Notes: generated by a model from the letters alone, not told the origin. 36,558 nucleotides of DNA from an uncultured Candidatus Bathyarchaeia archaeon (GCA_964499305.1 CAZCKR010000002.1:5054-41611); one strand, 5' to 3'; positions 17,273 to 36,558 are shown, numbered from the stretch's first letter. Numbers and translations are program-made.

Positions 17273-17317
17273 TTCGTGGAACAGTATTCCATATTAGAGT
17301 GTGAGTGTAATCAGGCG
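17273..17317 (-). promoter_or_regulatory. 45-nt conserved promoter/operator motif upstream of the GT2 gene (copy 1)
   Basis: TTCGTGGAACAGTATTCCATATTAGAGTGTGAGTGTAATCAGGCG matches 23042-23086 at 42 of 45 positions. On the minus strand it reads TAATAT (TATA-like), followed by the dyad TGGAA-N5-TTCCA. Confidence 0.6.
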
Positions 17318-17377
17318 TAACAACTAGGACGGTATGCGCCGCTTCTCTTTGGTTCAGATAAAAACGTTGGGGTCCGA

Positions 17378-23041: not shown

Positions 23042-23086
23042 TTCGTGGAACAGTATTCCATATTAGATTGTGAGTGTAGTCACGCG
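23042..23086 (-). promoter_or_regulatory. 45-nt conserved promoter/operator motif upstream of the CapF-like gene (copy 2)
   Basis: TTCGTGGAACAGTATTCCATATTAGATTGTGAGTGTAGTCACGCG lies 30 nt upstream of the ATG at 23012. It matches copy 1 at 17273-17317. Confidence 0.6.
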
Positions 23087-23170
23087 CGACAATCATCGCC
23101 TGTCGGTTTGTGAATTTGTGTTGTGGCTGCTTCGACAGGATGGGTCTGCCGCGCCTTTGCTGTAAACTTC

Positions 23171-23821
23171 TTAATGTATCTGGGTGTCGTAGTCAACACT
23201 GCCGAAGACGGTTTCCAGGTGCTCCACTATGTCTGTCAGGTGTTTATCGACGGCTTCCACCTCGGCGCCGTTGGGGCACCACGCGAAGTACAGGGGATTC
23301 TGTGTGTCGGGGGCGATGGAGGTTCTCCGCGCCGGGCCGTAGAGGACGCTGGCCAGCACGCCTTCGTCGTCTCTGAGGACTACGTCGTTCTTCTTGAGGC
23401 TCTGTTCCTCACCGTTGAGCTTGGTGTAGGGCTCGCCCTCGTCGGCTAGGTCGAATACAGGGTCGCCTTTGACGGCTTCTTGGTCGTGGCCCGAGGTGAG
23501 TATCCTGTTGCCCAGCTCCGCCATGAACATGGCGTCTACGTGGACGGACACCCGTGGGAACTTCCTCCCGGCCTTCATGGACTTTATCTGGTACTCTATG
23601 GGGTAGGTCTTTTCCCATTTGCCGTAGTAGTCGTTGTAGCTCTGTATCACGGAGTCTTCCCGGGGGTCGGGGTAGGTGTCTCTTATTTGTTTCTCTAGAG
23701 CTCTTTTTCTGTCCTCCAGCCTCTGGTCTTGTTTGGTGTTTTTCTGGTTGTATACCTTTAGGCTCCCGAACACTGCTCTGGGGTAGAGCATCTTTAGCTC
23801 GGGTCTGACAGTTATCTTCAT
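23171..23821 (-). CDS. B3/B4 tRNA-binding-domain protein (PheRS beta-subunit-related)
   Basis: 216 aa. The overall pattern (..SVHVDAMFMAELGNRILTSGHD..VVLRDDEGVLASVLYGPARRT..) matches stand-alone B3_4 domain proteins (by eye). Confidence 0.7.
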   Translation of the reverse strand: MKITVRPELKMLYPRAVFGSLKVYNQKNTKQDQRLEDRKRALEKQIRDTYPDPREDSVIQSYNDYYGKWEKTYPIEYQIKSMKAGRKFPRVSVHVDAMFMAELGNRILTSGHDQEAVKGDPVFDLADEGEPYTKLNGEEQSLKKNDVVLRDDEGVLASVLYGPARRTSIAPDTQNPLYFAWCPNGAEVEAVDKHLTDIVEHLETVFGSVDYDTQIH

Positions 23822-23910
23822 CTCGATTATAGGTTACGTGTTTAGCATTAAAAATGCGTCATTTTGGTTTGGTACTTGATCGTGTCTAGTTTGGGGGTTC
23901 GGCGGTGTTA

Positions 23911-24245
23911 AACGTTACGTGGATCGACGACTTTGCTTTTCCCTTATAGTTGGTTACTTGCTATAAGCGTTTTTTCGGGTACGCGGCGGCGCCGTGGATC
24001 GACGACTCGGTGTTTCCCTTGTAATTGGTTACTTATTATAAGCGTTTTTTCCGGTAACTGATGTATCGGTTAAGTGTTTGAAACGGGTTTTACCGATATG
24101 TTCGGGCGGTGGGCGGTGTTCTGGCCTGGTTTTTTCCTTGTGGTGGTTGCTTAAGCTGTTTATGGTGCGCCTGTTTAGTTGGTTTTAGCTGTTGTCTCCT
24201 TGTTTGCTTTGCGCCGGTTCGCTTTAAGATTCCAGGTTACGTGGG
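23911..24245 (+). repeat. Structured non-coding module, copy A (two tandem hairpin plus T-run units and a conserved tail)
   Basis: Collinear similarity to 27541-27864. Hairpins at 23942-23966 and 24017-24041, each followed by CG and T6. A GTTAC core recurs. Confidence 0.8.
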
Positions 24246-24450
24246 AGAATTAGTAGTTCTGTGTGAGGTCTAATGTTCCATGTGCGGCGTCTCCGATGGT
24301 GCTCTGCACGCCTACGATCTTTGGGTTGTCTGGCTGCCTCGTAGGCGGTCTGGCTTGTATCTGGCTCGCTCGGCCGAGCCTGTTTCGGTTAGGCTCTTCC
24401 TCTCCACCTGTGTTTGCTCTGTAGCCTGTGTCCGACAGGGGTAGAAGACT

Positions 24451-24909
24451 CTATTCAATTGTATGGCTCCAGTCTCTTATCTTGAGCCCGTTCCACGGGG
24501 CTTCTCTGAGCCACTCGGAGCCTTTCAGACTCAGTATGTCGTGGTCCTCTGTGAGGAGGAGGCCTGCCTCCGCCGCCTGGGCGACTATGACGGCGTCGAA
24601 GAAGTCTATGCCCGGGGCTTTCGTGTATAACGTGTTGAATCTATGGTCGTCGGCTGGCGTGTACCTGTGGAACCGGACTTTTTCGTCTTCCTGTAGAACC
24701 TTGAGGTTGTCGCCGAAGCCTGTGTGGGCAGCCACGTAGTCCGGGTTCCTCGCGGCGAGTCTCTTTATCTTTGCCTTGCCTTCGTAGACGCTTATCTCGC
24801 TGAAGTGTATCTCGTCTACGTTAGAGAGGTACTCCTCGAAGCGTTTCAGCGTATAGTTTTCAAGTTCTATGTCTAGGCCGAGGAAGGGGAGCAGGTAGGT
24901 GGTGTCCAA
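24451..24909 (-). CDS. vapC: PIN-domain toxin (VapC-like)
   Basis: N-terminal (M)DTTYLLPF acidic residue and C-terminal DFFDAVIVAQAAEAGLLLTEDHD. Sits immediately downstream of an AbrB-type antitoxin gene. TTG start. Confidence 0.8.
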   Translation of the reverse strand: MDTTYLLPFLGLDIELENYTLKRFEEYLSNVDEIHFSEISVYEGKAKIKRLAARNPDYVAAHTGFGDNLKVLQEDEKVRFHRYTPADDHRFNTLYTKAPGIDFFDAVIVAQAAEAGLLLTEDHDILSLKGSEWLREAPWNGLKIRDWSHTIE

Positions 24910-24922
24910 GTGGACCCTGGCT

Positions 24923-25174
24923 CTATCTTTCCTTGAGGCGTTCAGAGAGATCCCTTCTGTGCTGCCTCATCTCCTCCGGGGTCACGGGGAGTGCCGTCCT
25001 TTTCTTCCGTAGTAGGGAGAGGCTTGTGGGCTTGGGCTCTATTATGAGTCTGCCTTCCTCTACGTGGGCGACTACTTTTTCTCCGGGGTGGAGGCCGGTT
25101 TTCTCGCGGATGATCTTGGTCGTGTATATCTCGCCTTTGGTGCCCACTGACAGCTCGGTTTTTTCCGACGACAT
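24923..25174 (-). CDS. vapB: AbrB/MazE-type antitoxin (VapB-like)
   Basis: 83 aa. VGTKGEIYTTKIIREKTGLHPGEKVV is a swapped-hairpin motif. Lies 13 nt upstream of the PIN gene. Confidence 0.8.
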   Translation of the reverse strand: MSSEKTELSVGTKGEIYTTKIIREKTGLHPGEKVVAHVEEGRLIIEPKPTSLSLLRKKRTALPVTPEEMRQHRRDLSERLKER

Positions 25175-25288
25175 CGTTCGTCAGATACTGATGGATCGTC
25201 GGAGAATATAAAGAGTCGGACGCCTCCGGTTCGGTTGCGCCATCAGGTTGCCCATAATCGATGCCATGAGCTACCTGTCTTTTGCCTT

Positions 25289-25452
25289 CTAAGCCTCGAG
25301 GCGCCTCAGGTCTCGCCTGAATAAGTCGTCGTAGTAATCGCAGATGCCCTGCACTACTGCTTCCTTGACGCTGGCGACTATTCCCTGCGCTTCAGCTCCC
25401 GAATCATCCGGGCATGCTCGCCTCTTATGACGCACGACGTTGACGATGCCAT
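25289..25452 (-). pseudogene. Frameshifted ribbon-helix-helix (CopG-like) gene, paralog of 32623..32811
   Basis: ATG at 25452. The first 23 codons are identical to the intact paralog, then a TAG follows after 24 codons. A 1-nt shift restores IVASVKEAVVQGICDYYDDLFRRDLRRLEA, which parallels the paralog. Confidence 0.6.
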
Positions 25453-25589
25453 CCTTCTCCGTCAAGGGGAGCCCTTCTCGAGGCGTCTAAGAACTGGCTT
25501 TGGCGGACATTGTGATTCTGGGATTAACTGCTGGTGGAGTATGTGGGAGGCCATATTGATTCGATATATTTATGGACGTGTTGGTCTAT

Positions 25590-25955
25590 TCACACATCGC
25601 TCTCGGGAGGAAATGGTGTCAGCTCTGTTCGAGCCCGTTCTATGAGTCTTGCCGTAAGGACTCTCCTGAAGGCTCTCTCGTCGGGAGCCTCGGGGCTGGG
25701 CAGGTACAGCCTCTTGTGGCCTCCCTTCGCGGTGACCTCCCTGTAGGTGAGGAAGCCCTCCTCGGCTATCTCGTTGAGGAAGTTGATGGCTGTGGCCCTG
25801 CTCATCGGCGTCGATGATTCCTGAAGGTGTAGGTAGGCCATCCTCGAGTCAACCTCCCCTTTGGCCTTCCAGATCCACCTCATGAGCTCCACTTGCCAGG
25901 GCGTAAATACCGTCTCCAGCCCCTCCTTATCGAGGTCGAACTTCATCGGAGTCAC
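25590..25955 (-). CDS. Winged-helix DNA-binding protein
   Basis: 121 aa. The pattern MSRATAINFLNEIAEEGFLTYREVTAKGGHKRLY is a recognition helix followed by a beta-wing. Confidence 0.65.
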   Translation of the reverse strand: MTPMKFDLDKEGLETVFTPWQVELMRWIWKAKGEVDSRMAYLHLQESSTPMSRATAINFLNEIAEEGFLTYREVTAKGGHKRLYLPSPEAPDERAFRRVLTARLIERARTELTPFPPESDV

Positions 25956-25958
25956 CCG

Positions 25959-26381
25959 TTAAAGGCCCAGCCTCTCCCTGGTCTTGTCCCAGGACTCATG
26001 GAACTCTCGTCGGCTGATCTCCTCTCTGAGAAGGAGGTCTTCGCCGTGTGTGAAGCTGAGGACCTGCTCGAGGGCGTGGAGGTACCCCTCGTGGTATGCT
26101 TGGGGGGTCGGGTCTCTGTTCCGGGTTTGGTCGTGTTGGGCTTGTGCGTGGAGTTCCTCTTGGAGTCTGGCTAGGGTGGGGGTGATGTTGCGGGCATGCG
26201 CCTCGTCCTGGAGGGCGTCTACTGTGAGCCATGTGAGGTAGTCGTGGAGGGTGGCTTCGGTGAGGCGGTCTTCGGGGGTTTGGGCTCGGTGGTGTCTGGT
26301 GGCGTGGGTGAGGATGCAGCGGAGGTAGAATAGGTCGTGGCGAAGGGTGTTCTGAGAGTTGTTGACTGTGGTGTATCTCAT
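25959..26381 (-). CDS. Hypothetical His/Thr-rich helical protein (orphan)
   Basis: 140-aa ORF ending 4 nt before the wHTH gene. No motif recognised. Confidence 0.5.
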   Translation of the reverse strand: MRYTTVNNSQNTLRHDLFYLRCILTHATRHHRAQTPEDRLTEATLHDYLTWLTVDALQDEAHARNITPTLARLQEELHAQAQHDQTRNRDPTPQAYHEGYLHALEQVLSFTHGEDLLLREEISRREFHESWDKTRERLGL

Positions 26382-26515
26382 TGTTTTTCAGGTCTCTCGC
26401 TTTGGTATGCTAAGTAATGGGTAATAAAATTTGTGCTACCATTATGTATACCTAAATTGTGTATCAGAAAAGATGAAGTTTAATATCGATTGTGATACCA
26501 GAAGAGGCTACCAAT

Positions 26516-26716
26516 ATGATCGAGGGAAAGGGCAGGTTCATGAACCGCCCCACGAAGACGGGAAACCGAGTCTACGACAAGTTCTTCATCTACGTACCCA
26601 CTGAGGTCGCCAGGGACGGGCTCTTCCCATTCAAGCCCGGTGAAGAAGTGACTATACGCATCGATCAGGGAGGGAATCAGATTGTGATATCAAGAAAGAG
26701 ATTTAACGAGTCTTAG
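26516..26716 (+). CDS. Small AbrB/SpoVT-like DNA-binding protein
   Basis: FFIYVPTEVARDGLFPFKPGEEVTIRID is a swapped-hairpin-like motif. The ATG at 26516 lies about 30 nt downstream of TTTAATAT. An in-frame GTG at 26492 is an alternative start. Confidence 0.55.
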   Translation: MIEGKGRFMNRPTKTGNRVYDKFFIYVPTEVARDGLFPFKPGEEVTIRIDQGGNQIVISRKRFNES

Positions 26717-26814
26717 GCTGATCCCTCCTGACAATTTGGAGTAAGGTTCATTTTGGGTTTAACGTGGTTTGCCCTGGTCTTCGTCGGTCGCGTCGCGCGT
26801 ATAAAAACATTAAA

Positions 26815-27015
26815 TCATAAAGTTACTTTTGACATGTCTCCGAGGATGAGCTTGTGGCCTCTTGGGAGGTTGTTTTCGTGGTTGAGGATGGTAACGTTCC
26901 GGCCTATTAGGCTGTCAGTTATTTTCTTTCCACAGTCGATTCGTGCGCCGCTCATCACGATGCTGTTCTCGATCTCGGTGTTCTGTATGGTGGTGGGGTC
27001 TAGGATGCGCGCTCG
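26815..27015 (-). pseudogene. 3' remnant of a sugar-phosphate nucleotidyltransferase (left-handed beta-helix C-terminus)
   Basis: ILDPTTIQNTEIENSIVMSGARIDCGKKITDSLIGRNVTILNHENNLPRGHKLILGDMSKVTL parallels the C-terminus encoded at 35663..35938. The N-terminal domain is absent. Confidence 0.65.
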
Positions 27016-27313
27016 TAACATAGTTAAACTCTTAAGATTATGGGGTGCAATCACCGTCTTCTGCAAGGTATGCGGAGTCGAGATACACTTCTTCGACAGG
27101 ACCCTGATGAACTCCGAGCTGAAGGAGGAGGTGACGCGGAGCAGAAGCACCCTGGCGCTCGCGTTGAGGGAGCTGCAGGAGGAGAGGCTCATCGAGAGAG
27201 AGGTCGTGGACACGAGGCCCGTGCAGACGAGGTACTCCCTGACAGGCCTCGGCGCGGAGGTCGCCGGACACTTATCCGAAATAAAGAGACTGATCTCGGG
27301 TCATCCTATATAG
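27005..27313 (+). CDS. Small winged-helix regulator (HxlR/MarR-like)
   Basis: RSTLALALRELQEERLIEREVVDTRPVQTRYSLTGLG is a typical recognition helix plus wing. The start is uncertain; ATG at 27005 was chosen. Confidence 0.5.
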   Translation: MRARNIVKLLRLWGAITVFCKVCGVEIHFFDRTLMNSELKEEVTRSRSTLALALRELQEERLIEREVVDTRPVQTRYSLTGLGAEVAGHLSEIKRLISGHPI

Positions 27314-27341
27314 GGGCCTACCGCGTCTCGATTTGTCTGAG

Positions 27342-27447
27342 TTCACTTCGACTTTATAGTAGTTGGACACGGTGTGTGCTGTGGGCCAGAAGGGGTTCAT
27401 TGTGGCGATTTGTTTGATGTCTACTGGTTGTAGCCCTGTTTCGAGTT
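27342..27447 (-). pseudogene. Internal remnant of a Nudix hydrolase gene
   Basis: About 105 nt collinear with 35363-35468 (roughly 80% identical by eye). Translates ETGLQPVDIKQIATMNPFWPTAHTVSNYYKVEVNSDK, versus ETGLQPTNITQISTMSHIWPTAHTVTTYFKVEVNSDK in the intact gene. Confidence 0.6.
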
Positions 27448-27540
27448 GTGGTTTTGGATGGCTTGTGCTGTCTGTATGGCTTGGGTGACTGTCTGCGACC
27501 TCTGTTCTGGGGGGTTTCTGGATTCTTTGGTCTACCTACC

Positions 27541-27864
27541 CGTTACGATAGTCGACGACTTGGCGTTTCCCTTATCGTTGGTTACTTACGATAAGCGTTT
27601 TTTTGGGTACGCGGGCGGCGCCATGATTCAACGACTTTGCTTTTCCCTTATAATTGGTTACTTATTATAAGCGTTTTTCCGGTAACCGATGTATCAATTA
27701 AGCGTTAGAAACAGCTATTTACCGATATAGGCGCGTTTAAGCAGTTTTCCGGCCTGGCCTCTTCACCTATTTTAGGCGTTTTATTGGACTTTTAGTTATT
27801 TTTAGCTGTTGTCTCCGGGTTTGTTTTTCACAGGTTCGCTTGAGGGGTTCCAAGTTACCTGGGA
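27541..27864 (+). repeat. Structured non-coding module, copy B
   Basis: Collinear with 23911-24245. Hairpins at 27571-27595 (CTTATCG/CGATAAG) and 27647-27671 (CTTATAAT/ATTATAAG), with the TGGTTACTT loop and T7/T5 runs. Confidence 0.8.
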
Positions 27865-27967
27865 TGAGTTTGAAACACCCTCTTTCATGCTAGCCGGTGT
27901 TGCCTTGTTTGATGATGGCGATGGTGCCTGTTCGAGTTCTCTTCTGTAGTGCGCTCATCGGTGAGTT

Positions 27968-28240
27968 TTATGCGGGGTTTGCTGCGGGTCTATCGAGAAG
28001 TGTGTCCACCAGGTCTCTTTTTTCCGTCGCTAGATCGACGAGGGTCTTGTAGAGGCCTCTCTTCGAGGCGTCCCATATCTCTAGGGCGACGAGCTCCCCT
28101 GATTGGTCTAGGCCCATGAGCACGTCGCCGTCGAGGAGCTTTTCGTCCGCGATCTCGCCTTCCCTGAGTTTCACCGAGAGTATGTCGGCTCTAGAGTCGT
28201 ATCGTATTATGGGATCCAGCGTCCACTCCTCCTTCGTCAT
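27968..28240 (-). CDS. DUF2283-family protein
   Basis: 90 aa. YDSRADILSVKLREGEIADEKLLDGDVLMGLDQSGELVALEIWDASKR is the characteristic DUF2283 pattern. Confidence 0.75.
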   Translation of the reverse strand: MTKEEWTLDPIIRYDSRADILSVKLREGEIADEKLLDGDVLMGLDQSGELVALEIWDASKRGLYKTLVDLATEKRDLVDTLLDRPAANPA

Positions 28241-28281
28241 TCTAATAGGATTATTTTCATGTAATAGTTCTATTGTACAAG

Positions 28282-28536
28282 TTATTTGTAGATGGATTTT
28301 CTTGGGCCTACATCTAGGAAGACGACCAGATGAAGAGAATCATCTATTATGTAGATTATTCTGTACTCGCCTATTCTCCAACGCCAATAACCTTGGAGTT
28401 CGCCTCTCAGTTTAACGCCATACGACGGATTGGCGATTATCTCATCTATGGCTCTCAGGGTCCTCTCTTTAACCTCGTCAGGCTGTTTCCTTAGTTCCCT
28501 TAAGAACTTCTTTGTGAGGGCAGGCCTATAATCCAT
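28282..28536 (-). CDS. relE: RelE/ParE-family toxin
   Basis: 84 aa. KKFLRELRKQPDEVKERTLRAIDEIIANP...GYWRWRIGEYRIIYIIDD..LVVFLDVGPRKSIY is the typical RelE pattern. Confidence 0.8.
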   Translation of the reverse strand: MDYRPALTKKFLRELRKQPDEVKERTLRAIDEIIANPSYGVKLRGELQGYWRWRIGEYRIIYIIDDSLHLVVFLDVGPRKSIYK

Positions 28537-28548
28537 CGGGCTCTCACT

Positions 28549-28749
28549 TTATAGTTTCTTCCTGATGTCGTCGCTGTTGTGTAGTGTGATATAATCTCCT
28601 TTTTGGTACTCTTCCTCGGCTGTTTTTATTCTCTCCAGCCCCTCTGTGTTCGCCAGCTCTTCTAGCGTTGCCAGAACCTCTTCGACCCTAACTAGTCCTT
28701 CTTGAAGCTCCTTTAGAAGAGCCGTGGGGATGTTTATGTACTCTGTCAA
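28549..28749 (-). CDS. Putative antitoxin partnered with RelE
   Basis: 66-aa helical ORF lying 12 nt upstream of the RelE gene. Assigned from position and size; no strong motif. Confidence 0.6.
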   Translation of the reverse strand: MTEYINIPTALLKELQEGLVRVEEVLATLEELANTEGLERIKTAEEEYQKGDYITLHNSDDIRKKL

Positions 28750-28848
28750 CTTTTGCGTCCATCATCCCTTCCTTATTGTACCTTATTTAATGTTTTTACT
28801 TCAGCCGCGGAGGATAGTAGGCTCAGCTAACGGTGGATAAGTTTGAAG

Positions 28849-29022
28849 ATGAAGGCGGTCCTCGACGCAGCCGCGACAAGGATTCTGCTGCACCTCTCCA
28901 AGATCGGGGACATCAAGATACGGCTACACAGGCCAATGGAGGAGAAGGCCACTACGCCACCCTCAGAGGCGGTGCAAGCCCATCCAGCGAAACAGGAAGC
29001 CTCCCTACTTGTAGGGAGGTAG
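28849..29022 (+). CDS. Candidate 57-aa ORF (below the track threshold), possibly a truncated HTH gene
   Basis: ATG at 28849, TAG at 29020-29022. Reads MKAVLDAAATRILLHLSKIGDIKIRL.... Sits in the otherwise unexplained 274-nt gap between two TA loci. Confidence 0.3.
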   Translation: MKAVLDAAATRILLHLSKIGDIKIRLHRPMEEKATTPPSEAVQAHPAKQEASLLVGR

Positions 29023-29023
29023 T

Positions 29024-29452
29024 TCACTCTGGTATCTGTAGGTTTCTGGGATCGATTCTTTCTATGCCCGAGATTTTGTCGTAAGCTTGATCTGTTGAGA
29101 GTATTGTGTGGTCGGGGACATGTGGTGTTAGGGAGGTTGCTGCGTAGATGGCGTCGAATATGGATTTGAGGTCATAGCTTGTCATGAGGTCGAGGGCGGA
29201 TAGAAGGATCTCTCGCGTTGGGTCTATGTATGTGATGTTCTCCAGGGTGGTTAGATTAGCGGCGTTGCCTAGTATGGTGGGTATTGGTGCGATGTCGCTG
29301 AAGACGTAGTATAGCTCATGGATTATGTCTGTTGAGGCCTGTATGTCTTGGAGGGTGTTGGTCTTTATGGCGTTGAAGATTTTTTCGGCTGTGGGTTTGA
29401 GCCAGTCTTCTTTTTTCAGGTATGCGATAAATAGGTCAGATTCGATTAGCAT
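29024..29452 (-). CDS. vapC: PIN-domain toxin (VapC-like)
   Basis: MLIESDLFIAYL (N-terminal acidic residue) and SIFDAIYAATS...ILSTDQAY. Overlaps the upstream AbrB gene by 17 nt. Confidence 0.8.
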   Translation of the reverse strand: MLIESDLFIAYLKKEDWLKPTAEKIFNAIKTNTLQDIQASTDIIHELYYVFSDIAPIPTILGNAANLTTLENITYIDPTREILLSALDLMTSYDLKSIFDAIYAATSLTPHVPDHTILSTDQAYDKISGIERIDPRNLQIPE

Positions 29453-29657
29453 TTTGTGTTTCCCTCTTTGCTTTTTCTTCTCCCATTTGCTTGAGTTCCT
29501 GCGTTGTGTGTTGGGTGTCTATTGGCGTGATCTCTTTAGGTATGGGTATCAGTAGGTAGTTTTGTCCTCGGGGGATGATTATCGCTTTTTCTGCTTTGAA
29601 GCCTAGTTCTTTTGGGAGGTATATGCGACGCTGGGAGTCAATGGAGACGATGGTCAT
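29436..29657 (-). CDS. vapB: AbrB-type antitoxin (VapB-like)
   Basis: VSIDSQRRIYLPKELGFKAEKAIIIP is a swapped-hairpin motif. 73 aa. Confidence 0.8.
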   Translation of the reverse strand: MTIVSIDSQRRIYLPKELGFKAEKAIIIPRGQNYLLIPIPKEITPIDTQHTTQELKQMGEEKAKRETQNANRI

Positions 29658-29661
29658 TTTT

Positions 29662-29696
29662 TACCAAATAGCAGGGTTGTTTGGTAGAATATATAG
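29662..29696 (-). promoter_or_regulatory. Promoter plus operator dyad of the vapBC locus
   Basis: The minus strand reads CTATATATTC (TATA-like), then TACCAAA-N11-TTTGGTA (29662-29686), ending 5 nt before the ATG at 29657. Confidence 0.5.
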
Positions 29697-30134
29697 TTTT
29701 ATGGTTAAAGTGTATTCTTGTGGTGTCTGCGTCCCAGCGTCTGGTTTGTTGTGTAAGGTACGCGGTACTGTATGAGGCGTGATTTCTGGTCCTTGAGCCG
29801 TTCAGGGTGGGTGTAGAAGCGTGAGATAGAACGCCGGGTTTTTTCTTGAGATTTTGAGTGAGAAAGTTATTATTTTATTGTGACGCTTTTCGCCAGGTTC
29901 CGTGGCTTATCCGGGTCTGCTCCGCGTCTACCCCCAGCCCGAACGCCTCGGCGACTCTGGCGTCCTCCTCGGAGAAGCGTCCGGGTCTTTACAAAGACGT
30001 TTATACGTTAATGTCGCTGGGAGAGTTAATATCATTGCTTGCATCATATAGCGGATCTTAATATTTATGAGGTTTCGTGCTGACTTGCTGCCCTAGAATG
30101 TAAGTGAAAAAAGGGATAATTAGGGTTTAAAGTG

Positions 30135-32138
30135 TTACTTCAGATACTTGTCGAACCATCTGAGAATGTGTCTTAGCCTGGCGGTGCGGTGGCTGGGCTT
30201 CCCCATGCGGCTGAGTCCATGGGGCTCGTTGTAGAACCTGACGAACTCGACCTCCTTCTTTAACCTCTTGAGGGCGACGAAGAGCTTCTCTCCTTCGGGT
30301 ATAGGGCATCTGTAGTCGTTCTCGGAGTGGATGATGAGCAGCGGCGTCTCGATGTCCTTGATGTACGTCAGCGGTGACCTGTCAAGGTACTGCTCTGGGA
30401 TGTCCCAGGGATCCAGACCACTCCCGACGCCTATCCTACCCCAGCCCATATCGCTGAGTGCAACCTGGCTGTACCAGCTGGCGACCGACCTCATCGTAAC
30501 TGCAGCCTTGAATCTTTTTGTGTGTGTGACGGTCCAGTTGGTCATGAAGCCGCCGAAGCTGCCGCCGGCGACGCCCAGCCGCTCTGGGTCAACGTAGCCA
30601 TAGTTTTCGAGGACGTGGTCCAAGGCCTCCATGAGATCTTGGAAGTCCCTACTCCCCCAGTTACCCTCTACGATGCCAGCGAACTCCTCGCCGTAACCGA
30701 TGCTGTCTCTGGGATTCGTATAGACGACAACGTAGCCGTTCCTAGCGAGGAGTTGGAACTCGTGCTCGGCTGAGTCTAGCTTGAATCCATAGGCTCCATG
30801 GGGACCACCGTGGATCTCCAGGACCAATGGGTACTTCTCCCCTTCCTTGTAGCCGTTGGGCTTGACTATCCACCCCTGCACCTTGACGCCATCGCTGGCG
30901 GTGAACCAGAACTCCTCCGGGGGGCTCACCTCCCAAGTCGCCATGATCTTGTCATGGACGCTTGTAAGGCGCTTCGTACTTTCCTCGTCTCGTATCCAGA
31001 CCTCGTTGGGCCAGAGAGCGTCGGTGGCGCAGAGGGCGAATAGGGACCCGTCCCCGCTGGAGCTGAAGCTGGAGACGGTTATTTTCCCCTCGGTCACAGG
31101 CTTGACCTTTCCGTTATGCGCGGTCACCTTGTATATCTGGGTTGTGCCGTTATTGGAGGCCCTGAAGTAAATTTCCCCGGAGTCGCCGCTCCAGAGCAGG
31201 CTCGATCTGTAAGCTCCAACCGTCCTATCGAAGTCGGAGGTCAGGTTCCTAGCCTCACCGCCGTCAGGTGGGATCACCCAGATATCGGTGTTGCCGTATC
31301 CTATCGCCACAGGGTCGGGGGGAATCCTACCTGCGTAGGCCAGGAGACCTCCGGCAGGGGACCATGAGACAGTGCTGATGATGGACTTCTCGTCCGTGAC
31401 CTTCCTGGGCTCACCGCCATCGGCTTTTATGATGTATATATCCTTCAGTCTCGTTAGGTCGCTCTCCTCCATGTTGGCGACGAACGCGACCTCGGTGCCG
31501 TCGGAAGACCAGGATGATGCTGAGACGTCGTAGGGTCCGCTTGTGATCTGAGCTGGTGTGCCACCCTTGGAGCTAACTGTGAACAGGTGGACCCTGGTAT
31601 AGGGAAAAAAGGACTCCCCGTCATACTTGTACCTGAGCTTGCTTATCCAGAGGATCTCAGGGTCTGTCTCCTCAGGGGTCTCTGTATCCTCCTCTATCCT
31701 GGATTGTAGGAGTATTTTCGAGCCGTCGGGGGATAGCTGGAAGCCGCGGATGCCGTGCTCGGCCTCGACGAGGAGCCTTGCCTCGCCTCCTTCGAGGGGC
31801 ATGGACCAGATGCGGGTCTTCCTGTTCTCCTTCTCCCCTGCCGTGAGCCTGTTCGAGTTGAAGTAAACGGTCTTCCCGTCGGGTGACCATCGGGGGTGAG
31901 TGTCCGAGTCCTCTCCGGAGGTGAACTGCCTGGGATCGCCGCCGTCAGTGGGGACAATCCAGATGTGGGTGTCATACGTGTCCTCCTCGATCTTGGTGAT
32001 CCTCCTGACGAAGAGAACGTTCCTCCCGTCGGGGGATATCTGAGTGTCATCCAGTGGGGTTCCGTGAATGAGGGGATCGACATCGTATTTCTTCAGTTTT
32101 AGCATATTATTACCGTGATTATATACTTCTCTGGACAC
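30135..32138 (-). CDS. S9-family serine peptidase (acylaminoacyl-peptidase/prolyl oligopeptidase-like): beta-propeller plus alpha/beta hydrolase
   Basis: Repeated propeller-blade motifs of the SPDG..xxF type. Nucleophile elbow GGSFGGFM, later ENDYRCP (Asp) and EPHGL (His). GTG at 32138; the ATG at 32105 (MLKLKKYDV) is an equally plausible start. Confidence 0.9.
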   Translation of the reverse strand: MSREVYNHGNNMLKLKKYDVDPLIHGTPLDDTQISPDGRNVLFVRRITKIEEDTYDTHIWIVPTDGGDPRQFTSGEDSDTHPRWSPDGKTVYFNSNRLTAGEKENRKTRIWSMPLEGGEARLLVEAEHGIRGFQLSPDGSKILLQSRIEEDTETPEETDPEILWISKLRYKYDGESFFPYTRVHLFTVSSKGGTPAQITSGPYDVSASSWSSDGTEVAFVANMEESDLTRLKDIYIIKADGGEPRKVTDEKSIISTVSWSPAGGLLAYAGRIPPDPVAIGYGNTDIWVIPPDGGEARNLTSDFDRTVGAYRSSLLWSGDSGEIYFRASNNGTTQIYKVTAHNGKVKPVTEGKITVSSFSSSGDGSLFALCATDALWPNEVWIRDEESTKRLTSVHDKIMATWEVSPPEEFWFTASDGVKVQGWIVKPNGYKEGEKYPLVLEIHGGPHGAYGFKLDSAEHEFQLLARNGYVVVYTNPRDSIGYGEEFAGIVEGNWGSRDFQDLMEALDHVLENYGYVDPERLGVAGGSFGGFMTNWTVTHTKRFKAAVTMRSVASWYSQVALSDMGWGRIGVGSGLDPWDIPEQYLDRSPLTYIKDIETPLLIIHSENDYRCPIPEGEKLFVALKRLKKEVEFVRFYNEPHGLSRMGKPSHRTARLRHILRWFDKYLK

Positions 32139-32434
32139 ATAAATCTAGTATTAAAAAACTTCGCACCTCTCTTAACCAACTCTTATCATTAGATATTACT
32201 CTCGAAAAAGAAAAAAGAGATTTAGGACTTATTGTATATTGGATCTCGACTTTTTTCAGGGAAATTGAAAAAACATATTGGTTCCTTGCCGGCGCCATCG
32301 CGATGGGCGTGTTGATTTGCATCGCTGAACCTCACAGTCAATATGATTGGAGAAAAGTGATGCTAATAAATGTGGTTGAGATTAGTAGGAAGAATGTGAT
32401 TAAGGGTAGATGTAGGGTATTGTGTTCTTAATAA

Positions 32435-32584
32435 TTTAGGTGTTCTACCCTCAGCGACGAGCTCATAAAGAAGATAGAGAGGCGCAGGGGGCTGGCGAAG
32501 AGATCCAGCTACATCGAGCACCTCATCGAGCGAGGGTTTGAAACCCAGAAAGGAGAGAAGGTGGAGACCCGTAGACTCAGCTGA
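32435..32584 (+). pseudogene. Start-less ribbon-helix-helix remnant
   Basis: Open frame reading ..CSTLSDELIKKIERRRGLAKRSSYIEHLIERGFE.. (RHH pattern). It is bounded upstream by TAA and has no ATG/GTG/TTG before the fold. Confidence 0.35.
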
Positions 32585-32622
32585 CTCTCTTAGTGCCCTG
32601 AGGCAATGATTTCGTTAGTCGT

Positions 32623-32811
32623 TTAATTGCTTGGGTCTCTCGATCCCTCTACTTCTAGTCGTTTCAGGTCGAGCTGTAGTATGGTGTCGTAGTAGGTGTA
32701 GATGCCCTGTACGATAGCTTGCTTGAAGCTGGTGACTGTGCCTCTGCGCTTCAGCTCCCGAATCATCCGGGCATGCTCGCCTCTTATGACGCACGACGTT
32801 GACGATGCCAT
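32623..32811 (-). CDS. Ribbon-helix-helix (CopG/Arc-like) protein, orphan
   Basis: 62 aa. TSCVIRGEHARMIRELKRRGTVTSFKQAIVQGIYTYY fits beta-strand, helix, helix. No adjacent toxin gene. Confidence 0.65.
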   Translation of the reverse strand: MASSTSCVIRGEHARMIRELKRRGTVTSFKQAIVQGIYTYYDTILQLDLKRLEVEGSRDPSN

Positions 32812-32989
32812 CCTTCTCCTTCAAGGAGAGCCCTCCTCGAGGCGTCTAAGAATCAACCAACTTTTCCCTTTTATGCTTCGAGAGGCTTTACCCTCGGTCA
32901 CGTGCCTCACCTTGTCTGGTTTTGGGTTCCGGATGGGCTTTATGAGTCATATGAAGGTTCAGTCGCTACCGAGAGTCAAGTAAAAGTGA

Positions 32990-33035
32990 AGGCCTCATGA
33001 GCGCGTCGCCGTCGAGGAGTTTTAGTCCGCGATCT
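32990..33035 (-). pseudogene. Short remnant of a DUF2283 paralog
   Basis: About 45 nt collinear with 28110-28155 inside the intact DUF2283 gene. Translates KLLDGDALM, versus KLLDGDVLM in the intact gene. Confidence 0.45.
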
Positions 33036-33209
33036 TATTGGCGGTAATAAGCCTTAACATATTAGATCTAGATTAACCCTAATAAATCAAGGCACGATAA
33101 AGAGGCGGGTTTTCACCTATTCTGGTTTCGATTCCATTACCTTCTTTGACCATGATCCTGCTCCGTAACACTTATTTTTACATATGTATATGTAGATGTA
33201 GACAGCGTC

Positions 33210-33452
33210 TTGACGTCAAAAACGGTATCAGTGTCGGAGGATGCCTACGAACTCCTCAAGAAGATGAAACTCAAGGGAGAGAGCTTCACGGAGACCATTA
33301 GGAGGCTCGCCAAACGCCGCAGGCTCGCGGACTGCGCCGGACTGTGGTCCGACGTCTCCGAGGAGGAGATGGAGGACTACTGGGGCAGCATAGCCGACTT
33401 GAGGAGAAGGGCTGCGGAGTCCATGGAGATGGGCCGTGTTGAAGGTCGTTGA
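33210..33452 (+). CDS. vapB: VapB-type antitoxin (putative-antitoxin family, DUF217-like)
   Basis: KTVSVSEDAYELLKKMKLKGESFTETIRRL is the characteristic N-terminus. Overlaps the PIN gene by 17 nt. TTG start. Confidence 0.75.
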   Translation: MTSKTVSVSEDAYELLKKMKLKGESFTETIRRLAKRRRLADCAGLWSDVSEEEMEDYWGSIADLRRRAAESMEMGRVEGR

Positions 33453-33837
33453 CTCAACCTTCCTGATATGCCTTCTCCGGAACGATCCTCTGACTCTCAG
33501 CAAGGCGGAGGAGCTGGACGGGGAGGGCGGCGCCGCGACCACCGTCGTCAACGTCTATGAGGCCTCGTATGGGGTGTACAGGGCGATGTCGGACCCGTCG
33601 AGGAGGATGGAAGCCTTCAAGCGTCTGGTCACGAATCTAGAGATCTTGGACCTCGACTACGAGGCTGCGATGAGGGCTGCCGAGATATCGGGGACGCTGG
33701 ACAGAGAAGGGAGAGGGATCGATCCCTTCGACTCGCTCATCGCGGGGATCACGCTCACCAGCGGCGCGGAGGCGCTGGTTACCAGGAACGCCTCACACTT
33801 CGTGAGGGTGCCGGGTCTAAAGGTCGAGGAGCACTGA
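33436..33837 (+). CDS. vapC: PIN-domain toxin (VapC)
   Basis: VVDSTFLI, YEASYG, DPFDSLIAGITL and LVTRNASHF are the conserved PIN acidic positions and layout. Confidence 0.85.
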   Translation: MLKVVDSTFLICLLRNDPLTLSKAEELDGEGGAATTVVNVYEASYGVYRAMSDPSRRMEAFKRLVTNLEILDLDYEAAMRAAEISGTLDREGRGIDPFDSLIAGITLTSGAEALVTRNASHFVRVPGLKVEEH

Positions 33838-33985
33838 GAGAAGGGCCCCGTCTTTAAAGTTCTCTATGTGGCTTACCGAGGCTCGGTTTTCCGTAGTTGT
33901 CAGCTATTTTCATTTTATTCTCTTCTCCGGGGTGTGTCTTGTGTGTTAATGGAGGTGGCGTTGGTGGATGGTGTGTACTTGCCTT

Positions 33986-34417
33986 CTACCCTAACACCTT
34001 AAGAAACTCTTCGGGGGTGAGCGAGGCGATGAAGAAGGAGGCTTTTTTAAACTTCTTGTCCTCGGTGATAACATGGCTGGCCCCTGAGATCACACCGGAA
34101 GCAGCGATGATGGCGTCTGGGAGCCTCATCCCGGTTTTAGCCCTTATCTTGCCGGCGAGCCCCGCCAACTCGATATCGACATCCACGATCGTGTACTCGC
34201 CTGTGGAGCGTAGGCGCAGGATGAAGTTCTTGAGCCCGGCCTCATCACCCGATGTGTGGTAGCCGACAGCGACCTCAGCGATGGTCACAGTTGAGATCAC
34301 GGCCATGGTTTTTCCCGTCTCAACCTGGTCGAGGATCTCAACCACGCTTTCATGCCCAGACTCCCGGTTGTACACCTTGAGTAGGACGTTTGTGTCGAGG
34401 ATTACTCTCGGTCCCAC
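33986..34417 (-). CDS. vapC: PIN-domain toxin (VapC)
   Basis: ILDTNVLL, TIAEV, LPDAIIAASG and VITEDKKF. Overlaps the upstream AbrB gene by 16 nt. Confidence 0.85.
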   Translation of the reverse strand: MGPRVILDTNVLLKVYNRESGHESVVEILDQVETGKTMAVISTVTIAEVAVGYHTSGDEAGLKNFILRLRSTGEYTIVDVDIELAGLAGKIRAKTGMRLPDAIIAASGVISGASHVITEDKKFKKASFFIASLTPEEFLKVLG

Positions 34418-34641
34418 TCTCTTCGTAGCCTCCTCTGGAAGGCTAGGCTTGACTCGCCGAGGGGCTTCGCCCTCATTAATATTTCGCTGAGCTTATCCTT
34501 CTGAACTTTCCTCAGCGTCACCGTGTCTCCATCAGCCTGGAAGATTACTTTATCGCCTTCAGACACGTCTAGAGCCTCCCGGATGTCCTTCGGTATTGTG
34601 ACTTGACCCTTTGATGTGACTGAGCTGACCCCTATCTCCAA
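34402..34641 (-). CDS. vapB: AbrB/SpoVT-type antitoxin (VapB)
   Basis: VTSKGQVTIPKDIREALDVSEGDKVIF is the canonical motif. TTG start about 30 nt downstream of CATATAAG. Confidence 0.85.
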   Translation of the reverse strand: MEIGVSSVTSKGQVTIPKDIREALDVSEGDKVIFQADGDTVTLRKVQKDKLSEILMRAKPLGESSLAFQRRLRREWDRE

Positions 34642-34976
34642 GACAAATCTCCGAGTAGACAGTTGACGTACTTACTTATATGCATTACATTTCATACTTG
34701 AAAATAAGGAAAGCAGGATCTTCGTGGAAATGGTCCGGCGGATTGGTGTTACAGAGTCGTGAGCGTGGGCGTAGCATAGTTTCTCGGGCACATGCATATT
34801 TTTTGGAGGCTTCGACTTTCCTCGGGATTCAAGTTCTAGCACGTGTAAAAGCGAGGTCTGATCGAGAGCCACCCCCGAATAGGGGTCTACCGTGTATCGA
34901 TCATCCTCTTATTTGCCGTCTTTACCCTCGGTCTCTTGCCTTAAATTGTCTAAAAGAAGCCTTTTATCAATATTTT

Positions 34977-35190
34977 ATGGTAGGTTCTGTTGTCTTGAAG
35001 GCGTTGGTCCTTGCCGGGGGTTTGGCTACCAGGTTGAGGCCTCTTAGCTTGGCCTAAGGTTCTTTTTCCGTTGGCTGACGTGCCTCTCATCGACTATGCG
35101 TTGAGTGGTCTCAGGGAATATGGTATTGACACGGTTATCATGGCTGTGAACTATCTTGCCGATATAATCGTCGATTATTTGGGTCATGCA
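34977..35190 (+). pseudogene. N-terminal fragment of a sugar-phosphate nucleotidyltransferase, frameshifted and truncated
   Basis: KALVLAGGLATRLRPLSLA (the GGxGTRL signature) runs into TAA at 35055. The +1 frame continues PKVLFPLADVPLIDYALSGLREYGIDTVIMAVNYLADIIVDYLG. Similarity is lost after that point. Confidence 0.6.
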
Positions 35191-35244
35191 TGCATTTCTT
35201 GGTTGAATAATAAGAGACAGGAGACTGGTGGGGAAGCTGATTAC

Positions 35245-35622
35245 TTATCTGAAGAGACCCGTGTTCTTGATCATTTCAACTAGGTAGGGGTGTAGATCGT
35301 CCTCCATGGTGTTGATCCATCTGTAGCCGCGGTGCTGTTCGTCTAGTTTCACTTTGTCGGAGTTTACTTCGACTTTAAAGTAGGTGGTCACGGTGTGTGC
35401 GGTGGGCCAAATGTGGGACATCGTTGATATCTGGGTGATGTTGGTTGGCTGTAGTCCTGTTTCCTCGGATAACACGCGTTTGACGGTGTCTTCAAGTTTC
35501 TCATCTTTGAAAATTCTTCCTCCGGGGGTGAACCAGAGATCTTTTCCGGGTTCGTTGTTTCTCAGCATTAATAGTAGGTTGCGCTTGTGGGTGACGAGGA
35601 GGTCTACGCAGGGTAGAGGCAT
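35245..35622 (-). CDS. Nudix hydrolase
   Basis: Nudix box GGRIFKDEKLEDTVKRVLSEETGL (Gx5Ex7REUxEExGU). 125 aa. Confidence 0.85.
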   Translation of the reverse strand: MPLPCVDLLVTHKRNLLLMLRNNEPGKDLWFTPGGRIFKDEKLEDTVKRVLSEETGLQPTNITQISTMSHIWPTAHTVTTYFKVEVNSDKVKLDEQHRGYRWINTMEDDLHPYLVEMIKNTGLFR

Positions 35623-35662
35623 AGATTTCTTTATCTTGTCGTTAGCTTGGGCTCTATCCTCG

Positions 35663-36044
35663 TCATATTACTACCTTTGACTGGTCGCCGATTATGAATC
35701 TCTTGCCTTTGGGGAGTTCGTTGTTTTTCGTGATCACTACGTTTCGTCCTATTACGCTGTCCGTTATCAGCTCGTCGCACTCTATTGATACGCCTTCCAT
35801 GACTATGCTGTTCTGGATCTCCGAGTTCTCTATCGTTGAGCCGTCTCCGATGCTCGTGTAGGGTCCGATGCATGTTTGTGGCCCGATGGTGCAGTTTTCA
35901 CCTATTATCGATGGTCCCTGTAGAACGGAGCCCTCCATTATGTGTGTGCCTTTTCCTATCCGGAGATTGTTGTTTACCCTTACATCTTTATCGATGGTAC
36001 CTTCGTTTTTGGGTACTAAGTCTCCGAGGATTAACTGGTTTCTC
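35663..36044 (-). pseudogene. 5'-truncated nucleotidyltransferase: left-handed beta-helix C-terminal domain only
   Basis: Hexapeptide-repeat sequence (IGENCTIGPQTCIGPYTSIGDGSTIENSEIQNSIVMEG...). The homologous frame stays open up to the TAG at about 36045-36047, with no start before the ATG at 35938. The nucleotidyltransferase domain is missing. Confidence 0.65.
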
Positions 36045-36131
36045 TAGAAGATGGGGAGTGTTGCCGGCCCTGGAGCAAGGGACTCTTCGCTTAGCATCTC
36101 CCTGCCCCGTGGCTTTCAGTCATTTTCATCT

Positions 36132-36558
36132 CTAACCCGAGACCGTGAATTCTATGGTCACCGGCGATCCTATCGACACTCCGCCGTGGGCGGGCCATGC
36201 GTCGAGGACCATCACCTTGGCCGTCCAAGTCCCAGCCGTATAGCCTGTAAGGGGTAGCACAAAGCCCAGGCCTGGTCCGAGGCTTTGTCCCGGAAGCAGC
36301 GTCATGCTTATGTAGCACGGAGCCAAGACGCGGTAGTCTGGATCCTTCAGCTGTACGACTATCAGCATCGACTGGCTTTCTGTTCCCACGTTGGAGACAT
36401 CCGCTGAGACTAGGACCGTCTCTCCCAACGCGAAGCTCGTCTTAGGAGCTCCGGTGGAGTCCAACGTCTCTTCCCCGCTTATCTCAGTAGGTAGTCCAGG
36501 CAGCACAACTGTGAAGGTCGTCGAGTCCGTAGCCCCGGCGATATTGGCATATACCGTG
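36132..36558 (-). CDS. C-terminal part of a secreted or surface beta-sandwich (CARDB/Ig-like) protein; 5' end outside the window
   Basis: The frame is open from the window edge (..TVYANIAGATDSTTFTVVLPGLPTE..) to the stop at 36132. Beta-rich sequence. Confidence 0.55.
   Translation of the reverse strand, partial: TVYANIAGATDSTTFTVVLPGLPTEISGEETLDSTGAPKTSFALGETVLVSADVSNVGTESQSMLIVVQLKDPDYRVLAPCYISMTLLPGQSLGPGLGFVLPLTGYTAGTWTAKVMVLDAWPAHGGVSIGSPVTIEFTVSG

Follow-up and report, generated by a model that had tools for sequence, protein, structure and literature searches.

A mosaic, multi-copy repeat family with tandem hairpin and T-run units in a Bathyarchaeia lineage

Two intergenic segments of a 36,558-nucleotide stretch of DNA from an uncultured Candidatus Bathyarchaeia archaeon (GCA_964499305.1 CAZCKR010000002.1:5054-41611; hereafter the window), module A (23908-24246) and module B (27541-27864), were found to belong to a large, non-coding, multi-copy family that is confined to one Bathyarchaeia lineage. 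We lean towards reading both as copies of a lineage-restricted, non-autonomous mosaic repeat comparable to bacterial interspersed mosaic elements (BIMEs), BOX elements and miniature transposable elements with inverted repeats (MITEs), the units of which would act as oligo-T terminators of plus-sense transcription. The main result is the mosaic, multi-copy and rearrangement-associated nature of the family, unforeseen by a preliminary description of module A made from the sequence of the window. Bathyarchaeia are among the most abundant sediment archaea and are uncultivated, and to our knowledge their non-coding DNA is essentially uncharted.

Tandem hairpin units on the plus strand

Modules A and B lie on the same strand and are collinear; about 70% of the alignment columns are identical (mean column identity 85%, n = 2), which confirmed the same-orientation duplicate that had been described 3.6 kb downstream of module A. 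Both modules start with two head-to-tail units of 75-76 nt. A repeat search gave a 74-nt unit with four copies, at 23913, 23988, 27541 and 27617 (spacings of 75 and 76 nt), and the pattern TTTCCCTTNNNNTTGGTTACTTNNNNTAAGCG matched the window 4 times versus 0.00 expected. A covariance model of the unit (R1) recovered exactly four units at 81-89 bits, on the plus strand only, with the runner-up at 15 bits. The two tandem units said to open module A were confirmed by the repeat search (75-nt spacing) and by R1. Gene prediction by codon usage gave no gene within 23822-24450, as expected of a stretch described as gene-free. The genes nearest module A, B3_4 (B3/4-domain, 23171-23821) and PIN/VapC (24451-24909), are both on the minus strand, and the statement that no plus-strand gene lies upstream for the hairpin and T-run to terminate is correct for the window.

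The unit is about 55-64 nt long and comprises, on one strand, a single-stranded box, (G)TCGACGACT-N6-TTTCCC, then a hairpin, then GCG and a run of five to seven T. The hairpin has an 8-bp A/U-rich stem closed by C-G and a 9-nt invariant loop, UGGUUACUU (also written TTGGTTACTT). In 144 distinct units, which gave the consensus nCGTGGATCGACGACTTGGCnTTTCCCTTATAATTGGTTACTTATTATAAGCGTTTTTTCnGG, hardly anything varies in the box, the stem foot or the loop (TGGTTACTT), and the T-run is 5-7 long in 141. The stem foot is flanked by TTTCC(C) and (G)CG-T6, and the CGACGAC box lies 15 nt off.

The stem (columns 27-34 with 44-51) was paired in 97.4% of 1152 cells, and pairing in slid registers never rose above 57%. 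Double-sided changes were counted in 95 cells versus 34±16 in column shuffles, a number that none of 500 shuffles attained. Two pairs switch freely, 33-45 between AU (72) and GC (68) and 32-46 between AU (106) and CG (25); the window's four units alone carry AG/CT, CG/CG and AA/TT at the variable pairs. This covariation points to a folded single strand and not to double-stranded protein sites. Wobble pairs were G·T or T·G in 44 cases versus A·C or C·A, the wobble of the opposite strand, in 14; they fit the plus strand only, which makes it the folding strand. A second helix candidate, of 3 bp and enclosing the box, was weak (72.7% paired), and folds of whole modules did not exceed shuffled sequences in stability (module A, z = +1.1 and +0.3 on its two strands; module B, z = -1.4 on the plus strand).

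Unit A1 (23917-23980, R1 88.8 bits, E 2e-25) has the box GATCGACGACTTTGCTTTTCCC, a hairpin at 23943-23967 (stem CTTATAGT/GCTATAAG, loop TGGTTACTT), GCG and a T6 run at 23970-23975. In unit A2 (23992-24055, 85.9 bits) the hairpin CTTGTAAT/ATTATAAG lies at 24018-24042 and contains a G·T wobble, and the T6 run is at 24045-24050. Both hairpins had been recognised in the preliminary description with coordinates one base too low: the arms CTTATAG/CTATAAG lie at 23943-23949 and 23961-23967, and those of CTTGTAAT/ATTATAAG at 24018-24025 and 24035-24042. Unit B1 (27545-27608, 85.3 bits) has the hairpin CTTATCGT/ACGATAAG at 27571-27595, with a stem that is compensatory relative to unit A1, and a T7 run at 27598-27604. 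Unit B2 (27621-27684, 80.7 bits) has the hairpin CTTATAAT/ATTATAAG at 27647-27671 and a T5 run at 27674-27678.

Coding capacity was considered for the unit itself. Variation in the frame TCC CTT ATA ATT GGT TAC TTA TTA TAA is mostly synonymous or conservative, and a GTG start is possible in many units. A coding sequence was nevertheless rejected: the unit spacings are not multiples of three, stem covariation is unexplained by coding, and the upstream frame is not preferentially open (median open codons 28, 15 and 21.5 in the three frames). No conserved open reading frame (ORF) was found in the elements, in agreement with the earlier comparison of the two modules.

Family size and range

An exact pattern scan of one genome per prokaryotic species gave 26 loci in ten assemblies, all species-level metagenome-assembled genomes (MAGs), and a relaxed pattern gave at least 120 metagenome contigs; together these formed a 932-kb set for profile search. 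Eight of the ten MAGs are labelled Bathyarchaeia, one Krumholzibacteriaceae and one Pirellulales. The contigs with the latter two labels share flanks or genes at the DNA level with Bathyarchaeia-labelled contigs or with the window (L011 with L009, L008 with the window) and appear to be mis-binned. The profile search recovered at least 262 units in at least 158 arrays (61 single, 90 double and 7 triple) at 147 loci, and every unit is intergenic. Unit spacing is bimodal, at 54-57 and 73-77 nt. One MAG holds at least 11 units over 7 contigs. A locus or contig end is no more than 300 nt away from 41 of the 158 arrays, which a repeat that breaks assemblies would lead one to expect.

Rfam gave no match at the gathering threshold in the window and 15 loci, consistent with the earlier view that no named element class fits; the single hit at E ≤10 was a chance snoRNA match outside the element. 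Units were not found in IMG/VR viral contigs, INPHARED phages or PLSDB plasmids, and one viral-contig hit to the short palindrome pattern described below is within chance. A virus or plasmid origin was rejected on these searches. A literature search gave no report on this repeat family, which is apparently undescribed. The preliminary description had proposed a covariance model with a wider search and had held module A to be structurally constrained and more than a neutral duplication. Hundreds of copies and a covarying stem bear this out, and further copies with structure-preserving variation were found.

Interchangeable heads and tails and a closing palindrome

An array holds one to three units that follow each other head to tail at intervals of 55 or 75 nt; the heads and tails to which they are joined are interchangeable, with several head types and at least five tail types. 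The tail of the window modules (type 1) reads CCGGTAAC..TTACCGATAT, then TTTAGTTATTTTTAGCTGTTGTCTC.., and a short form goes directly to the TTTAGTTA motif of this tail. Further tails are of a T4, an AT-rich and a GC-rich type, and a promoter-like type consists of TTATTTAAAAT..TTTATTTAAATTC, then a Shine-Dalgarno-like sequence, then a gene. Heads and tails occur in different combinations, as in L144, which has a T4 head and a type-1 tail. RNA structure was not supported by covariation in the type-1 tail (covariation term -0.64, 2 of 38 pairs compensatory) or the T4 head (+0.39). The tails hold several degenerate ..TAAGCGTT(T) feet on the same strand as the units, suggesting that they may partly descend from old units.

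Most tails close with a 17-24-bp palindrome, TTCCnnGTTACnnGGAA, centred on GTTAC. Its form is TTCCnnGT(T/A)ACnnGGAA, extendable to about 24 bp, with inverted arms around a 5-7-bp centre that occurs in either orientation. The 932 kb contain 82 such sites versus 9 in a reversed-sequence control, and 52 of the 82 lie within 500 nt downstream of an array, mostly at 100-400 nt. Flanking sequence changes exactly beyond the palindrome. The T4-type element, of about 430 nt, was found in at least six unrelated contexts and has a 17-19-bp palindrome at both ends, mostly in direct orientation. Solo copies of the palindrome exist, with an additional 20-nt extension. The GTTAC core is common to the hairpin loop and the centre of the terminal palindrome, and some of the type-1 copies, modules A and B among them, also have it directly against the first unit (CGTTAC joined to GTGGATCGACG); this left junction is missing from most heads. 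The recurrence of GTTAC that had been pointed out does hold within the element. GGTTAC is not enriched in the window as a whole (18 occurrences versus 13.8±3.4 expected), and its recurrence is a property of the element and no independent signal.

Module A reads, on the plus strand, as a weak left half-site, the two hairpin and T-run units, a segment M1, a T-rich tail and the closing palindrome; module B has the same architecture. Matches of module A to about 70 related loci in BLAST start at 23909-23925 and stop at 24244-24246. The left site (23908-24) has 3 mismatches and scores 10.6 with a position weight matrix (PWM), within noise. M1 (CCGGTAACTGATGTATCGGTTAAGTGTTTGAAACGGGTTTTACCGATAT, 24051-24105) is conserved in type-1 elements from many contexts and includes both an imperfect short palindrome (AACyGATrTATCGGTT) and a degenerate foot (TAAGyGTT); covariation in the type-1 alignment gives no support for it as RNA. 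The T-rich tail (24106-24229) holds the conserved TTTAGTTGGTTTTAGCTGTTGTCTCC (24174-24199) and GGTTCGCTT, as seen by repeat search and alignments, and its sequence is kept while its structure is not. The tail previously called conserved is present in the alignment of both modules, as is the closing CCAGGTTACGTGGGA / CCAAGTTACCTGGGA. The closing near-palindrome of module A, the 'S site' TTCCAGGTTACGTGGGA (24230-24246), is an exact match to TTCCNNGTTACNTGGRA and scores 17.9 bits with the PWM; that of module B, TTCCAAGTTACCTGGGA (27848-27864), is the window's best at 18.7 bits. These are the only two strong palindrome sites in the window, and none lies in 27865-36558 (8.7 kb, with further toxin-antitoxin genes).

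Three other arrangements were noted. A solo element of about 40 nt, TTCCATGTGACAAGGATATTGAA(A)TTCTCAATATAAC, consists of two adjacent palindromes and lies away from hairpin units (L042:103, L042:1082, L046:589, L109:1236, L112:2723, L127:3396 and L129:1005, with reverse-complement copies in L041, L095, L101 and L130); it is also the left end of T4-type elements. A GC-rich segment, CGGTGGCCGCGTGCTAGCCCATAGCAAGTCGAGGCTACCC...GCGCGCCATGCAAAAGGCAT, is conserved about 150 nt past the last unit in L034, L052, L091, L053, L073 and L089, closes with a TTTTCGG..CCGAAAA palindrome and has no Rfam match at the gathering threshold. In L027 (1-625), a T4-type element has an intact tRNA-Met (3-80) on one side and, on the other, a partial and diverged repeat of the 3' half of this tRNA (575-623), which is the scar that integration at a tRNA gene classically leaves.

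Coincidence with gene-order breaks between strains

Close relatives of the window change gene order at the elements. L058 and L060 share about 98% identity with the window for 2.5-5 kb from exactly position 27551, where the unit B1 box has its first base, and L048 is 94% identical over 0.6 kb from the same base; their left flank is common to the three and unrelated to that of the window. For L043, L049 and L055 the match to the window begins at 21609 and is lost after 23975/6, the last T of unit A1. In L043 a single hybrid unit joins A1 to a B-type tail, the intervening 3.6 kb being absent, and L049 has a single unit and no tail. L051, L115 and L092 have a T4 element in common and differ on one side of it or the other. 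Unit number also varies at orthologous loci, with two units in the window versus one in L043 and L049, and three in L127 versus two in L042. The elements therefore coincide with gene-order breaks between strains. A search for empty sites gave no clean filled/empty pair: the contig of a 92% B3_4 orthologue begins inside a unit, and contigs with an identical DUF2283 protein end short of the module. B3_4 orthologues with 64-68% amino-acid identity are found in different surroundings that lack units, in line with a family restricted to one lineage.

Neighbouring genes

The immediate flanks fall into 200 protein clusters and comprise housekeeping, toxin-antitoxin and IS5-like genes. In a non-redundant Pfam census, the 3' side had IS5-like transposase fragments (9 of 103) along with HAD hydrolases, CoA-transferases and some ten proteins of toxin-antitoxin systems, and the 5' side had aminotransferases, PCNA, NUDIX and FMN reductases. 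Neither side yielded an integrase, an HUH enzyme or TnpB; Rep, Orc and Par genes were not found alongside the units, and the IS5-like element was the only recurrent neighbour. Among 176 flanking proteins, and among the protein clusters that are commonest in the 932 kb, there was no Y1/HUH gene, and no integrase was present in the window or near the 158 arrays.

Relative to the unit, the 5' and 3' neighbours of 77 non-redundant contexts were opposite/opposite in 28, opposite/same in 21, same/same in 17 and same/opposite in 11, so that 49 contexts have a 5' neighbour of opposite orientation and 28 a co-oriented one. There is a slight excess of divergent intergenic regions (27% versus 16% background). 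Downstream neighbours are diverse, 57% of them on the opposite strand. A role as terminator of the upstream genes was rejected, there being no orientation rule once redundant contexts had been removed. Upstream of first units we found no TATA/BRE-like (B recognition element) or AT-rich signal at a fixed distance, and AT content is flat.

The IS5-like element (DUF772 and DDE_Tnp_1, about 273 aa), often decayed, occurs in L079, L108, L138, L128, L025 and relatives, where it is inserted at varying points of AT-rich tails in at least three genomic contexts; it starts with GAGAGT..AACCTCTGTTTT, and its ends are unrelated to the repeat element. In L010 (about 6380-6470, oriented), the PCNA gene stops inside the box of the first unit, ..GCCGTGCATCGGCGTCTAG, and the hairpin and T-run follow the stop codon directly in a terminator-like placement. 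Judging from the gene family, L070-type loci probably share this arrangement.

Comparison with known repeat families

In kind, the family is like the mosaic repeats of bacteria; what sets it apart is the domain of its host, the orientation of its units, the design of stem and loop and an obligatory T-run. With BIMEs and repetitive extragenic palindromes (REPs) it shares a short imperfect palindrome (here the 25-nt hairpin) in many extragenic copies that form mosaics with other short motifs. Like BIMEs, it marks hot spots of rearrangement and of insertion sequence (IS) insertion, and its units may provide RNA 3'-end structures. REP families are reported from bacteria only, mostly as head-to-head dimers, and are defined by an unpaired tag, GTAG or CGTC, that is conserved at the palindrome foot (PMC3733652). 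The present host is an archaeon, and the A/T-rich stem with its long invariant loop contrasts with the G/C-rich stem and foot tag of REPs. All 97 multi-unit arrays run head to tail instead of alternating; close convergent arrays were seen at one locus only, 330 nt apart (sampled twice: L072 and, in reverse complement, L122). The T5-7 run is obligatory here, and no REP-associated tyrosine transposase (RAYT) was found in the 176 flanking proteins and 932 kb.

The BOX element of Streptococcus pneumoniae, boxA-boxB(n)-boxC, has a variable tandem module of about 45 nt between fixed ends, is intergenic and has no transposase. The present family is likewise non-coding and built of modules, one of which is repeated in tandem in varying number; it is dispersed between genes and encodes no transposase. 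It has no sequence relation to BOX, has at least five interchangeable tail or head types, and its repeated module is a covarying hairpin with oligo-T. Size (about 200-450 bp), lack of coding capacity, copy number and lineage specificity recall MITEs, including those of archaea, and T4-type copies have the same sequence of about 18 bp at both ends. Unlike in MITEs, this terminal sequence is itself palindromic and mostly in direct orientation, and no parent IS with shared ends was found, the neighbouring IS5-like ends being unrelated. No target-site duplication is visible at T4 junctions.

Archaeal intrinsic terminators resemble the units in having T5-7 right after the stem and several signals in a row on one strand. 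Ordinary archaeal terminators are not conserved in sequence across loci and need no hairpin, whereas box, stem foot and loop are nearly invariant here and most copies are not downstream of a co-oriented gene. As in IS200/IS605 ends and palindrome-associated transposable elements (PATEs), some copies have a hairpin on one strand at a distance of about 20-25 nt from a junction that contains TTAC; that junction is not general, the hairpins are in tandem, no second distinct end hairpin was found, and TnpA and TnpB were not found in the 932 kb of loci.

Integron attC sites, for example the Vibrio cholerae repeats, are comparable in that the modules were first seen between toxin-antitoxin cassettes and fold as single strands. 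The attC sites conserve structure only, whereas primary sequence is highly conserved here; a pair of modules within 12 kb, separated by 5-6 genes, makes no cassette array, most copies adjoin housekeeping genes, and there is no IntI. An integron-like attC array was rejected, given only two palindromes in the window and no integrase. Type III antitoxin (ToxI-like) repeats were rejected as well, there being no conserved gene downstream of the tandem repeats.

A probable non-autonomous repeat carrying putative terminators

The dispersed intergenic copies, the gain and loss of units, the exchange of heads and tails and the location at breakpoints argue for the behaviour of a non-autonomous, recombinogenic repeat, and the element would spread and recombine as such DNA. 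New copies might arise by transposition, by site-specific recombination at the GTTAC palindrome or by homologous exchange between units. From its wobble pairs, the unit would be read as a single strand of plus polarity. A run of at least five T is an archaeal intrinsic termination signal, and consecutive terminators are common in archaea. Each unit should then end plus-sense transcripts that enter it, and a module is predicted to line up several terminators of one polarity. In the window, only divergent or antisense transcription could be stopped in this way, and no gene.

Several points weigh against this reading. Termination is deduced from the T-runs, and mobility from the distribution of copies. 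There is no terminator-type orientation rule, a co-oriented upstream gene being present in only 28 of the 77 contexts and absent from the window. An invariant loop and a conserved 5' box are superfluous for generic terminators and imply a specific partner, either protein or nucleic acid. The covariation count is partly inherited and overstates the independent events, as the sampled genomes are all close relatives (83-96% amino-acid identity in orthologous flanks). Finally, no empty site, target-site duplication, autonomous relative, transposase or recombinase was found in the loci sampled.

A tentative and less likely possibility is that the family has been left behind by a mobilisation system of archaea that is as yet undescribed. 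An HUH-type enzyme or site-specific recombinase acting in trans would recognise the GGTTAC-loop hairpin together with the GTTAC-centred palindrome, would spread portable terminator stacks and would shuffle neighbouring genes, including toxin-antitoxin cassettes. By analogy, and as tentatively, such a system might be an archaeal counterpart of REP and RAYT, differing by its head-to-tail units and obligatory oligo-T run.

Whichever reading is right, the repeat explains many contig breaks in Bathyarchaeia MAGs, is usable as a lineage marker and flags junctions at which gene order and toxin-antitoxin content differ between strains. If the units terminate transcription, they would be rare sequence-defined, hairpin-containing archaeal terminators spread as a cassette; if a dedicated enzyme moves them, REP/RAYT-like host-element partnerships would extend to archaea. 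Both possibilities are open to testing now that unit, strand and boundaries are defined and a covariance model is at hand.

Alternative explanations

The near-invariance of loop and box keeps two enzyme-based explanations alive. The first is a single-stranded DNA hairpin element mobilised in trans by an HUH-type enzyme (IS200/IS605 TnpA- or RAYT-like) that recognises the GGTTAC-loop hairpin on one strand and cuts at GTTAC, an archaeal counterpart of REP/REPIN or PATE elements. We consider it unlikely. Strand-specific folding that tolerates G·T, an invariant loop as expected of a protein-recognised hairpin, and a GTTAC core shared by the loop and the middle of the terminal palindrome would suit such an enzyme. 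In the subset that has it, the CGTTAC junction with GTGGATCGACG resembles the TTAC left junction of IS608, about 25 nt from the hairpin foot, and arrays sharing a contig are mostly co-oriented (7 loci versus 2). The census of neighbours gave no Y1/HUH gene, however, and no distinct right-end hairpin was found; the left junction, missing from most heads, may belong to a conserved head where it is present. The units run head to tail, whereas REPs, known from bacteria only, are mostly head-to-head dimers (PMC3733652), and the invariant T-run is left unexplained. Of the IS200/IS605- or REP-like hairpins proposed in the preliminary description, the strand-specific hairpin has stood; an HUH enzyme, a right-end hairpin and a consistent TTAC-type junction were not found.

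In the second, which we regard as quite unlikely, the modules would be attachment modules (arm and core) of small integrative elements, with the GTTAC palindrome as crossover core, the units and tail as accessory arm and the recombinase encoded elsewhere, and they would mark successive integrations that built the variable toxin-antitoxin island. The palindrome is indeed shaped like a recombinase core, with inverted arms around its 5-7-bp centre; it bounds T4-type elements as direct repeats in at least six contexts, exists in solo copies and marks the exact point at which flanks change. The L027 element between tRNA-Met and the partial 3'-half duplicate, and the 3.6 kb between the window palindromes, which carry vapBC and small ORFs, also agree with integration. 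Against this stand the lack of an integrase in the window or near the 158 arrays, the restriction of strong sites to two in the window with none in the remainder of the toxin-antitoxin island, and the L043 junction, which falls inside the unit array and away from the palindrome. The centre occurs in either orientation, and the palindrome is no more frequent in viral contigs than by chance.

It is improbable that the units are tandem genes of small trans-acting structured RNAs of about 55-90 nt, with the box as 5' seed, a protein-binding hairpin and a U-tail. A covarying hairpin with plus-strand wobbles, a conserved single-stranded 5' box and a U-tail like those of Sm/Lsm-binding small RNAs agree with this. 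The unit also lies downstream of a divergent gene's promoter region in 64% of non-redundant contexts, where a short upstream antisense transcript could arise. Self-promoted small RNA genes were rejected, however, given the lack of an upstream promoter signal and of further structure beyond one hairpin. Arrays spaced at 55 nt leave no room for promoters between units, Rfam has no match, and dozens of near-identical mosaic copies per genome are atypical of regulatory small RNA genes. Thus the tandem small structured RNAs suggested earlier are unlikely as self-standing genes, and compatible with the data as the 3' ends of plus-strand RNAs.

A neutral local duplication or a double-stranded protein-binding array (iterons, a centromere or the origin of an integrated replicon), suggested by two copies 3.6 kb apart in one variable island and by TAAGCGTTTT-like motifs four to five times per module on one strand, is hardly credible for a family with hundreds of copies in unrelated contexts and genomes, with compensatory stem changes that double-stranded recognition fails to explain, with dispersed copies beside housekeeping genes far too numerous for origins or centromeres, and with no Rep, Orc or Par genes found alongside. 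The iteron- or centromere-like GTTAC array put forward in the preliminary description is likewise a poor fit to dozens of dispersed chromosomal copies and a covarying single-strand hairpin.

Other features of the window

The modules lie in a dense toxin-antitoxin island (23800-36558), the gene content of which varies between close strains. It comprises PIN/AbrB (24451-25174), DUF2283/ParE (27968-28536), PIN (29024-29452), VapB/PIN (33210-33837) and PIN/AbrB (33986-34641), and is interrupted by a core peptidase S9 gene (30135-32138). A NUDIX relic on the minus strand (27326-27442), about 100 nt left of module B, retains only residues 54-92 of an intact paralogue (35245-35622) at 69% identity; several relatives have intact NUDIX genes flanking modules. 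A small gene of 58-62 aa with no Pfam match is duplicated at 25296-25493 and 32654-32852, with 97% identity over 109 nt and 71% over the adjacent 89 nt.

Outside the island, a 51-nt repeat, TTCGTGGAACAGTATTCCATATTAGAGTGTGAGTGTAATCAGGCGTAACAA, occurs at 17273-17323 and 23042-23092 with 90% identity. Each copy is located upstream of the start of a minus-strand gene (17249 and 23012), at about 25-75 nt, and the repeat contains the palindrome GGAACAGTATTCC; the repeat may be a shared promoter or operator. The plus strand at 4072-5388 encodes an acidic 438-aa protein with degenerate 18-nt (Glu-Pro-Glu-Leu-type) repeats and no Pfam match.

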